From assembly GCF_048403405.1 (NCBI RefSeq), contig NZ_CP183129.1: 64,000 nt of DNA. One strand, 5' to 3'. The position numbers were made by a program. Positions 21,001 to 24,000 of the stretch are shown one piece after another (positions within the stretch are counted from its first letter, which is position 1; every line of letters begins with the position of its first letter). The DNA is from Escherichia coli. Its GTDB lineage: Bacteria; Pseudomonadota; Gammaproteobacteria; Enterobacterales; Enterobacteriaceae.

Positions 21001-24000
21001 TTCTCTACTGGCGGTCTATTCCGATCATATCTACCGCAACCAACCCTTGATGATCCGCGAGAACAAACCGCTGATCTCACTATGGGCGCAATGGTATATC
21101 GGCCTGATGGTGCCACCATTAATGTTGGCGCTGCTGACGCAGGAAAAAGCATTAGATGTGTCGCCGGAACATTTCCACGTTGAGTTTCACGAAACCGGAC
21201 GCGCCGCCTGTTTCTGGGTCGATGTGTGTGAAGATAAAAACGCAACACTACATTCGCCGCAGCAGCGAATGGAAACGTTAATCAGTCAGGCGCTTGTTCC
21301 GGTAGTGCAGGCATTAGAAGCAACGGGAGAGATCAACGGCAAACTTATCTGGAGCAATACCGGTTATTTGATCAACTGGTATCTGACTGAGATGAAACAG
21401 CTGCTCGGCGAGGCGACGGTTGAATCGCTGCGCCATGCCCTCTTTTTTGAGAAAATGCTCACGAACGGTGAAGATAATCCACTCTGGCGTACCGTGGTAC
21501 TGCGCGACGGCCTGCTGGTGCGCCGCACTTGCTGTCAGCGTTATCGCTTACCGGATGTGCAGCAATGTGGCGATTGTACGCTGAAATGAAAGCACTGCCG
21601 GGGAAGTAAACCCGGCATCATGCGGATTAATAGGGATGCAACACATTACTTGCTTCGCAATGCCGCATACATAACAGAATATCTGCGGCCTCCAACAACC
21701 CTGCATCAGAACTGACGCCCAGTTTCGACATCACATTAAATTTATGTGCACGGATCGTTTTGATATTGCGTTTAAGCTGCTCGGCAATTTGTGTCATTGA
21801 GTAGCCACGCGACATAAAGCGCAATATTTCTCTCTCCGTCGGGCTTAGCGTTCGGCTTTGATTAATGTACCACTGATTGTTCAGTCGGTCGGTCGCCTGA
21901 CGTACACCATTTAATGACAAAAAGAGTTCCTGATGAAAAATCTCCAGCGTTGACGCTTTACTTAATACACCGTCCAACGGTGATGGCGACAAAGAACCAA
22001 TCAGCCGAGCTTCAATATCATCATCCGCAATAACTAAACGCCGGGTACGCGGAAACTTAATCGCCAGTTCAGTCAGGCAAGATAATCCCTCTCTGCGCTC
22101 ACTTCTCATGGCAGAAAAAGAAAAAATGACCGCCGCAAACGAGATCCGCGACATGGCATCCTGAAATGACTCCTGACTGGTATAGGTATGGAGCTTATAA
22201 GGGTTACCCGCAAACTTTCTGAATAAACTCTCAATACCGATACTACTCATGACGCATTTTTCTATGAGTGCGACATTTCTCTTCTTAATTCGGCTGTGTT
22301 CCATTCTGCGGCATCTCCATAAACAGAAGGCAAGTTAAGTTCTCTTGCACCCTGCGCGCTATTTATCCATGCATACATTTCAGCGTTGCTGTGAATTGCC
22401 AGTCGACGCATCGCACTGTTTTTTTGGGCGCTGATAGTTTTATTACTTTTCTTAAGCAATGAAGCTATCTGGTTGATGCCCCATCCTTTACCTAATAGCC
22501 GCAGTACCTTGCGCTCTGAAAGAGTGAGAATGACGGAGCGATAGCTAAAATCATGAGTTTCAGTCATTGCCGGAGAGGTCAGCATGGCGCTGATACGCTC
22601 TGCGTGCGTATTGCCGGAACGTACGGTCTTGACCAGATTCTCAATGGGTTCAACATCAGACAATAACGTCGCCGTAGGGCACATGAGCAATTCTACTGCC
22701 TGGGAATACCAGGAGCGTGACACCATGAAAACCCAGTGAATTTCCCGATATTGCGAGATTAAAGAATAATAATGTTCACAAACAGAACGTGGATCTTCAC
22801 TTTCACCGGCTAAATCAGCAATGACTAATCCGGAACGACGTAATTGTAATAAGGTAAGGTCCTCCGCAGAGGCGCTGGATATTATTTCATATTCAGGGAA
22901 GTGAGTCCTCATGACCTCTTTTAACCCTGCTTGCATAACAGGTATTTTACTGATAACAATTCCATTTTTGCAGCATCCTGGCAACATATTTCCTCCACAT
23001 CCACTGTCTAAAAATCATGATGGTTTATTCAGGATATTCATTCCTTAAATGTTTCCAGCAAATTAATAGATTAAGCGAATAAATTATCCTTAGCATTCAC
23101 TTTCATATCAGCATACTCCTGCTGCACAACAACTCCACTGCATGTGTCAGAAGGTTAGCATCAAATGATAACCTGGTGAAATAGCCTGGAGACATTTAAA
23201 ATATCTACATTAAGTTGTTAGAAATACTTAATGAAAAACAGAATTCTCATTCATTTAATTTATAATTAACTGATATCCCTTCCTGCAGAATACAAAATCA
23301 CACAATCAATATTTATTCAATAAAATCTGATAGTTTTAACTTGTAAAAATTAAAAAACGCGCCCAGTTATCTTTTATCCTGATTCGTAAAGGCTAAACAA
23401 TAAATTCATTATAGTGATAATATTCATGTGATAATTTGTTTGCGACGAGAGATAATTCGCTTTTTATCACCGAGCTTCTCCTGATAACCAGGATTAATCA
23501 GCGCAATTTTGATCTTAACCTACCGCAAAACAACCGTGCTTCATGATACAAATGGATTCTCATTATCTGAACAATACGCAGCACGTCTATGACAAAGGGC
23601 GAGTTATGCAAACTGAGCAACAGCGAGCCGTAACACGGCTTTGTATCCAGTGTGGATTATTTCTTTTGCAACATGGTGCGGAAAGCGCGTTGGTTGATGA
23701 GCTTTCCTCACGACTGGGTCGGGCGTTGGGAATGGACAGCGTCGAAAGTTCTATCTCTTCGAACGCCATAGTGCTGACAACCATCAAAGATGGGCAATGC
23801 CTGACATCGACACGAAAAAATCACGATCGCGGCATTAATATGCATGTGGTGACTGAAGTCCAGCACATTGTGATTCTGGCGGAGCATCATCTGCTGGATT
23901 ACAAAGGTGTAGAGAAACGATTTAGCCAAATTCAGCCATTACGTTACCCGAGATGGCTGGTAGCCTTAATGGTCGGCCTTTCTTGCGCCTGTTTCTGTAA

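Follow-up and report, generated by a model that had tools for sequence, protein, structure and literature searches.

The closest described system is the yjjQ-bglJ/yjjP region of Escherichia coli K-12 (Stratmann, Madhusudan & Schnetz 2008, J Bacteriol 190:926), which is the same locus as the one considered here: the flanking genes agree, and both spacers measure 618 bp and are 96.4 % identical to each other. According to papers that cite this work, yjjQ-bglJ is repressed by H-NS and activated by LeuO in K-12, and the divergent yjjP is likewise regulated by H-NS. Those accounts speak, in the context of an hns stpA mutant, of a yjjQ-bglJ that 'would otherwise be expressed', and they describe repression by H-NS as prevailing under laboratory conditions, where the locus stays off. 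Genomic SELEX has placed a site for the RpoD holoenzyme in the yjjP<>yjjQ spacer, marked as including an H-NS binding site, and a peak for the RpoS holoenzyme was also found in this spacer, in both cases in vitro.

Three other regions can be compared to this one. The silencer of the bgl operon is also AT-rich and silenced by H-NS; it is relieved by LeuO and by BglJ-RcsB, and the operon is activated by insertion sequences (IS) upstream of the promoter. While bgl has silencers both upstream and downstream and a CRP-dependent promoter, the yjjQ-yjjP region has two divergent promoters and one central core, and the effect of IS elements on yjjP is modest. The leuL<>leuO region is silenced by H-NS/StpA, is bound by LeuO, takes part in the same LeuO/BglJ-RcsB feedback circuit and is a MarA ChIP-seq target too. 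The difference lies in the control of leuO, which is activated by BglJ-RcsB and autoregulated by LeuO, whereas the yjjQ region is without a reported BglJ-RcsB site. Finally, flhDC-uspC is a long AT-rich divergent spacer that is bound by H-NS and many regulators, is a recurrent target of IS elements that raise expression, and serves as a host-source marker alongside yjjP-(yjjQ-bglJ). There, however, the genes and regulators are other ones, and the IS effect on flhDC is large with a clear motility phenotype.

Genes and limits of the yjjQ-yjjP spacer

In the window, by which we mean the whole 64,000-nucleotide stretch of E. coli DNA that was analysed, the yjjQ-yjjP divergent intergenic region occupies positions 22988-23605. 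Gene coordinates were transferred to the window from the RefSeq annotations of TUM14771 (100 % identical) and MG1655; over the 1.2 kb around the spacer the identity is 100 % to TUM14771 and about 97.6 % to K-12. On one side lies yjjQ (22262-22987, minus strand, start codon at 22987), the first gene of the yjjQ-bglJ operon, which encodes a LuxR/FixJ-type regulator of 241 amino acids and is followed downstream by bglJ (21627-22304, minus strand). On the other side lies yjjP (23606-24376, plus strand), which encodes a ThrE-family protein of 256 amino acids labeled 'putative succinate exporter YjjP' in MG1655 and is followed by yjjB (24367-24840, plus strand) and then by dnaT and dnaC. The yjjQ product of the window is 100 % identical to the YjjQ of MG1655 (tblastn), and the identical protein WP_000936635.1 is annotated in six of the seven further E. 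coli strains whose diversity was analyzed. An earlier note on this DNA had placed a divergent intergenic region of about 620 bp between yjjQ and yjjP; gene names and layout are right according to both annotations, and the coordinates given there are exact to the base, with 618 bp between the two annotated starts.

An older yjjP start, ATG 23543, would give a protein of 277 amino acids and a spacer of 555 bp, and the 2008 description of the region reportedly used an older start with a spacer of this length. This start was rejected. Neither the start nor the frame is kept in other species, where stops and indels interrupt the frame, and this supports the 256-amino-acid yjjP and the 618-bp spacer.

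We consider it very likely that the divergent yjjQ-bglJ and yjjPB operons share this segment as their regulatory region and that it consists of three parts, with a central H-NS silencer and a conserved yjjP promoter. The first part, the yjjQ-proximal 230 bp or so (22988-23221), would hold the ribosome binding site, a sigma-70 promoter CTGATA-17-GATAAT, the MarA site and a conserved distal block. The second part would be a central core of about 260 bp with 75 % A+T, in which the composition is conserved and the sequence is not; this core may serve as a platform for nucleation and spreading of H-NS from which both promoters are silenced. Binding of LeuO inside the region would relieve the silencing of yjjQ-bglJ. 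The third part, the yjjP-proximal 110 bp or so, would contain a strongly conserved core promoter in which TTGATC is followed 35 nt downstream by an extended -10-like element. Insertions of IS1, IS2 and IS5-family elements between the core and the yjjP promoter would separate the promoter from the silencer, and this separation would result in the modest rise of yjjP that is selected in the mouse gut.

Repression by H-NS, activation by LeuO, the binding of H-NS, RNA polymerase and MarA and the effects of IS elements come from published experiments in K-12 or ETEC H10407, from which the window strain differs by about 9 % in the core, while the coordinates, the composition, the patterns of conservation and diversity and the mapping of sites and insertions come from this analysis. 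The earlier note had taken the region for a typical H-NS-silenced, LeuO-activated control region. This main interpretation corresponds to published experiment, since it agrees with the K-12 genetics, as relayed by the citing papers, and with the H-NS site of genomic SELEX. In effect, the question of H-NS occupancy is answered for K-12 both in vitro and genetically. The finding is real but ordinary: an H-NS/LeuO-controlled yjjQ-yjjP region is already known, and its discovery value is small because the region and this control were described in 2008, as the citing papers relate, and stand in standard databases. The detail added here, namely the conservation of composition, the hypervariable core, the co-location of IS elements, the exact marbox and the TTGATC element, refines this picture without changing it.

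Composition and variation of the spacer

The GC content of the spacer is 0.328 compared to 0.496 for the whole window, and it falls to 0.253 in the core between 23190 and 23450. Just 2.3 % of all stretches of 618 bp in the window are as AT-rich, which justifies the earlier description of the region as strongly AT-rich. This AT-rich tract lies between the divergent yjjQ on the minus strand and yjjP on the plus strand, where a control region is expected. Outside the prophage, the window has 22 intergenic regions that measure 80 bp or more. The spacer is the longest of them (618 bp compared to a median of 206 bp) and one of the most AT-rich, with a GC below the median of 0.433, while four shorter spacers (140-312 bp) have an even lower GC of 0.30-0.32.

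The position at which H-NS binds is presumably the center of the spacer. The spacer was also searched for the published H-NS 10-mer TCGATAAATT, with three matches at up to two mismatches and none at up to one; this corresponds to no clear enrichment and the motif is not informative here.

Of 5426 complete E. coli genomes, 5423 contain the spacer. Its identity to the window spacer is mostly 95-99 %, with 233 genomes at 90-95 %; 13 of the 5426 genomes are without an 80 % match to the spacer and 19 have the spacer split in two places. Compared to K-12, the window shows about two dozen differences, nearly all of them in the AT-rich core at 23222-23483 (about 23225-23490 in the comparison with MG1655), and the segments bordering yjjQ (230 bp) and yjjP (110 bp) are almost unchanged. 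This core has a GC of about 0.25, is hypervariable and would correspond to the zone of H-NS nucleation and spreading. It holds 56 of the 64 segregating sites of the spacer in a set of nine E. coli. In the 4.2-kb alignment of these nine strains, pi per 100 bp over 23200-23500 is 0.062, 0.083 and 0.037, the highest diversity in the 4.2 kb examined, compared to 0.002-0.014 in the adjoining spacer bins (23000-23199 and 23500-23599) and 0-0.012 in yjjQ; the values for yjjPB are about 0.005-0.04, and those for fhuF reach 0.04. The high diversity of the core fits the published use of polymorphism in the yjjP-(yjjQ-bglJ) spacer as a host-source marker.

Relatives of YjjP were scanned with one genome per species, resulting in 80 loci. 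In about 75 of them, from Enterobacteriaceae species of many genera, yjjQ-bglJ lies divergently upstream of yjjP. A direct spacer of 347-709 bp is found in 52 species, with a median GC of 0.364 and 200-bp minima of 0.18-0.35 in loci of 48-56 % GC. Another 23 species (Klebsiella, Raoultella, Kluyvera, the Citrobacter amalonaticus group and others) have about 2.6 kb between yjjQ and yjjP, or 1.8 kb in one of them. In K. pneumoniae, for which one locus was inspected, pobR-pobA, which encode an AraC-type regulator and a protein like 4-hydroxybenzoate hydroxylase, were found between yjjQ and yjjP. Stretches of AT-rich DNA are still present on either side of the extra genes.

One explanation for such AT-rich DNA is that it was recently acquired from a foreign source, or is the scar of a mobile element, and is silenced as xenogeneic. 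The composition of the spacer would fit this origin, and so would the GC of yjjQ, which is below that of yjjP (0.42-0.52 compared to 0.50-0.61), the landing of IS elements in the spacer and the presence of other genes between yjjQ and yjjP in 23 species, which marks a remodelled site. A recent acquisition is nevertheless refuted by the wide distribution of the spacer (5423 of 5426 E. coli genomes) and of the same divergent layout with an AT-rich spacer (about 75 species); the long AT-rich spacer has thus been maintained at this locus since long ago and did not arrive recently as foreign DNA. Furthermore, a repeat search of the spacer found no repeats of the mobile-element type. The idea that the spacer is the scar left by a loss of pobR-pobA was likewise rejected, with no trace of pobA or pobR found in the E. 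coli spacer by tblastn and blastn. Taken together, these results make a recent foreign origin of the DNA extremely unlikely; for yjjQ-bglJ, an ancient acquisition that predates the diversification of the family is possible.

Between genera, the core becomes unalignable while its AT-richness is kept. A core that is the most diverse DNA of the 4.2 kb and that cannot be aligned between genera is what would be expected without constraint, and it is conceivable that the core is neutral filler, with regulation residing in the conserved ends alone and the AT-richness reflecting mutational bias. This explanation is at odds with the maintenance of both length (347-709 bp) and low GC (200-bp minima of 0.18-0.35) in 52 species despite the turnover of the sequence, when the other spacers of the window have a median GC of 0.433 and a median length of 206 bp. 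It is also at odds with the binding of H-NS to the spacer in vitro, with the silencing of both operons by H-NS, as the papers citing the K-12 work report it, and with the selection of insertions that split the region. We thus regard neutral filler as unlikely and favor a core that acts as the H-NS silencer. Seen as a silencer, the core would be a clean example of H-NS silencer evolution, in which composition and length are kept family-wide while the sequence turns over faster than the neighboring DNA.

Sequence elements at the two ends

On the yjjQ side, the Shine-Dalgarno sequence GGAGG of yjjQ (22992-22996, minus strand) is conserved in at least 80 % of the sequences across the aligned species. 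A promoter scan revealed a yjjQ-proximal sigma-70 promoter-like sequence, CTGATA-17-GATAAT, at 23083-23111 on the minus strand, with the same hexamers that the RpoD SELEX table gives for yjjQ-bglJ; this recovery by an independent scan was counted in favor of the control-region explanation. The -10 region GGATAAT and the adjoining AAGGAT are conserved across genera. Transcription of yjjQ from this promoter would start near 23076 (minus strand) and yield a leader of 89 nt.

The marbox GCATCAAATGATAAC at 23158-23172 (plus strand) is an exact match to the MarA site of the H10407 ChIP-seq peak and is conserved within Escherichia. In ETEC H10407, the MarA ChIP-seq peak yjjP<>yjjQ lies over the site gcatcaaatgataac, and purified MarA bound the yjjP<>yjjQ fragment at 0.3 uM, the lowest concentration used. 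At 23158-23172 the window thus carries a sequence identical to a marbox that MarA binds in vivo and in vitro, as expected of a target of MarA/SoxS/Rob.

A central conserved block (gACATTTAAAATATCTACATTAAGTTGTTAG) follows at 23191-23221 and is seen in Escherichia, Salmonella and Citrobacter as well as in the 75-species alignment of the region upstream of yjjQ. This block (ACATTTAAAATATCTACATT...TTAG) travels with yjjQ and includes a -10-like TTTAAT/TTTAAA on the yjjQ strand. It is a candidate distal yjjQ promoter or protein site.

On the yjjP side, the RpoD SELEX table contains a prediction of a yjjP promoter, ATGAAA-17-TTTAAT, which we placed by reading the sequence at 23231-23259 (plus strand), about 350 bp upstream of the ATG. 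The conserved core-promoter module of yjjP is located at 23509-23552 (plus strand), with TTGATC at 23509-23514, TG at 23544-23545 and TACAAA at 23547-23552. A hexamer of the TTGATC type (TTG[A/G]TC) is present in all 76 sequences, including those of species with pobRA upstream. The spacing of TTGATC to a TGnTAnAA-like motif, for which 73 of the 76 sequences were usable, is 35 nt in 55 sequences and 33-34 nt in nine, and the remaining nine have no match. The TGnTAnAA motif at yjjP reads as an extended -10 promoter, and its transcription start would be at about 23559. Upstream of TTGATC, at a distance of 11 bp, most genera have a TTGCAC-like hexamer, which in E. coli is degenerate.

Several known elements were considered for TTGATC and its surroundings and were rejected. 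A class II FNR/CRP site (TTGAT-N4-ATCAA near -41.5) would share the left half, TTGAT, which is invariant and lies at about -50 to -46, but the right half is not conserved, being ACCTA in the window (three of five positions) and nCCAG in the consensus; a literature search on yjjP regulation and FNR found no relevant paper. A -35 hexamer is rejected on the grounds that no species has a -10 at 17 bp downstream. For a sigma-54 promoter made of TTGCAC-N5-TTGATC the spacing is right, but neither the GG nor the GC dinucleotide fits, and in E. coli the upstream hexamer is degenerate or absent. The match of the TTGATC region to an IHF site is poor. As for a DnaA box, TTTTGCACA fits TTWTNCACA in Enterobacter and Klebsiella, but the fit is not kept in E. 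coli or Salmonella.

We tentatively hypothesize that the yjjP-proximal 60 bp form a family-wide promoter module bound by a conserved, unnamed regulator, with the invariant TTGATC at about -50 to -45, a TTGCAC-like hexamer one helical turn before it in most genera and the extended -10 at a near-fixed distance of 35 nt (33-35), and that the core acts by composition alone as an H-NS silencer from which IS elements repeatedly uncouple yjjPB in the gut. The proposal as a whole is possible rather than probable. If it is true, yjjPB, as a putative succinate exporter, has an undescribed and specific physiological control input. The family-wide TTGATC element at yjjP thereby offers a modest clue, open to testing, to how YjjPB is controlled.

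Small genes and insertion sequences

The spacer had been described as having no ORF. This holds for ORFs of at least 60 amino acids and fails for shorter ones, with four mechanically called ORFs of 30-45 amino acids touching the region; none of the four is conserved as coding, and three of them are interrupted by stops or frameshifts in some lineages of E. coli or its sister groups. A 30-codon ORF that begins with ATG at 23195 and runs to 23103 (minus strand) is open in E. coli and in three of four other Escherichia lineages and frameshifted in one. It is without a Shine-Dalgarno sequence, and 12-13 of its 30 residues differ in the sister lineages.

The further suggestion that the region may hide small transcripts found no support. 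Rfam gave nothing in the spacer at E <= 1, terminator-like sites were absent from both of its strands, and a scan of the spacer revealed no tRNA or tmRNA. Both predicted leaders fold no better than shuffled sequences (z of -0.33 and +0.40), and there is no annotated feature under the spacer in TUM14771, in MG1655 or in 60 sampled RefSeq genomes. The spacer has seven promoter-like sites compared to a shuffled expectation of 3.5 +/- 2.0, which is not significant.

An unannotated small RNA or small-protein gene would account for a spacer length that is unusual for E. coli. It could also account for the binding of both the RpoD and RpoS holoenzymes to the spacer in vitro, for the conservation of the central block at 23191-23221, to which no function is assigned, and for the open frame from 23195 to 23103 (minus strand) in E. 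coli and three of four Escherichia lineages. These observations have to be weighed against the lack of any Rfam match, terminator, tRNA or tmRNA, structured leader or annotated feature in the spacer, and against small ORFs that either contain stops and indels or are divergent and without a Shine-Dalgarno sequence. Moreover, the core in which such a gene might be seated is the most polymorphic DNA locally. We therefore regard a hidden gene as very unlikely. Where H-NS is lacking, transcription may still initiate weakly or spuriously, since RNA polymerase holoenzymes bind the spacer in vitro.

The IS elements found in the spacer define an insertion zone at 23350-23495, from insertions selected in K-12 in the mouse gut and from the natural isolate TB354. 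During colonization of the mouse gut by K-12, insertions occurred repeatedly, with IS5 at -256, IS2 at -185 and IS1 at -111 from the yjjP ATG; mapped to the window, these sites correspond to 23350, about 23419 and 23495 respectively. Insertion raised yjjP about 2-fold, a small effect seen in aerobic conditions only, with a selection coefficient of about 0.03-0.05. The simple insertions, experimental and natural, all lie between the AT-rich core and the conserved promoter module of yjjP, and we infer that they uncouple the yjjP promoter from the silencer.

The putative silencer has been split by insertion sequences repeatedly, both in experimental gut colonization and in natural isolates. In TB354, isolated from chicken meat, an IS5-family element is flanked by a 9-bp duplication of 23467-23475. 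Strain 203740, from human stool, carries an IS1 and an adjacent deletion that took away most of yjjQ and left just 23561-23605 of the spacer, and in PS3Tanimalfeces2 an IS1-linked deletion extends from bglJ into yjjP.

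The TTGATC module and the pobR-pobA interruption

Upstream of yjjP, window positions 23509-23552 hold an invariant TTGATC followed at a near-fixed distance of 35 nt (33-35) by an extended -10-like TGnTAnAA, and in most genera a TTGCAC-like hexamer lies 11 bp 5' of the TTGATC. The module was compared with known regulator sites and none of them matches.

Among the YjjP-relative loci, each taken from one genome per species, the yjjQ-yjjP gap reaches about 2.6 kb in 23 species (1.8 kb in one of them). These are L061, the Klebsiella pneumoniae ATCC 13883 locus (locus positions 1641-3723), and 22 further loci, for example L009, L044 and L071. 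The TTGATC/-10 module adjoins yjjP in 23 of the 23. In K. pneumoniae, the sole locus of the 23 whose gap was inspected, the genes found are an AraC-type regulator and a 4-hydroxybenzoate-hydroxylase-like gene (pobR-pobA), which cut the AT-rich spacer into two parts of 264 bp (GC 0.39) and 277 bp (GC 0.43).

MarA and repeats within the spacer

In published ChIP-seq data, leuL<>leuO, which lies outside the window, and yjjP<>yjjQ are both among the targets of MarA. In the LeuO/BglJ-RcsB feedback loop, these are the two nodes that H-NS silences.

The marbox-containing 20-mer of 23157-23176 recurs in a second, weaker copy, AGCTTCTCCTGATAACCAGG, at 23473-23492, about 115-135 bp 5' of the yjjP start; the two are 75% identical. 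The IS in the natural isolate TB354 is located at the edge of this copy. The copy shows no conservation outside E. coli and may be due to chance.

We also observed a 14-nt inverted repeat whose arms, 23045-23058 (TTAAATGTTTCCAG) and 23186-23199 (CTGGAGACATTTAA), are 93% complementary, lie 127 nt apart and flank the yjjQ-proximal promoter and the marbox. The right arm overlaps the central conserved block.

Diversity of the neighbouring genes

Nucleotide diversity per 100 bp is 0-0.012 in yjjQ and about 0.004-0.017 in bglJ (yjjQ-bglJ coding, 21627-22987), far below the 0.03-0.04 of fhuF and mostly lower than in yjjPB (about 0.005-0.04). The same YjjQ accession, WP_000936635.1, is common to strain TUM14771 and six of the seven other strains sampled.

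Prophage and a second AT-rich stretch

Positions 1-17056 are prophage DNA of about 17 kb adjoining prfC, with genes for an integrase, KilA-N, YfdQ and DUF968 among others. TUM14771 lacks this prophage and matches 17057-64000 at 99.97%; among 5426 E. coli genomes, just 60 have 80% or more of the prophage in one place.

A further strongly AT-rich stretch, about 60900-63600 with a 618-bp GC minimum of 0.30, spans a pentapeptide-repeat protein gene and a 312-bp spacer (GC 0.317) that adjoins a DUF3343 gene.
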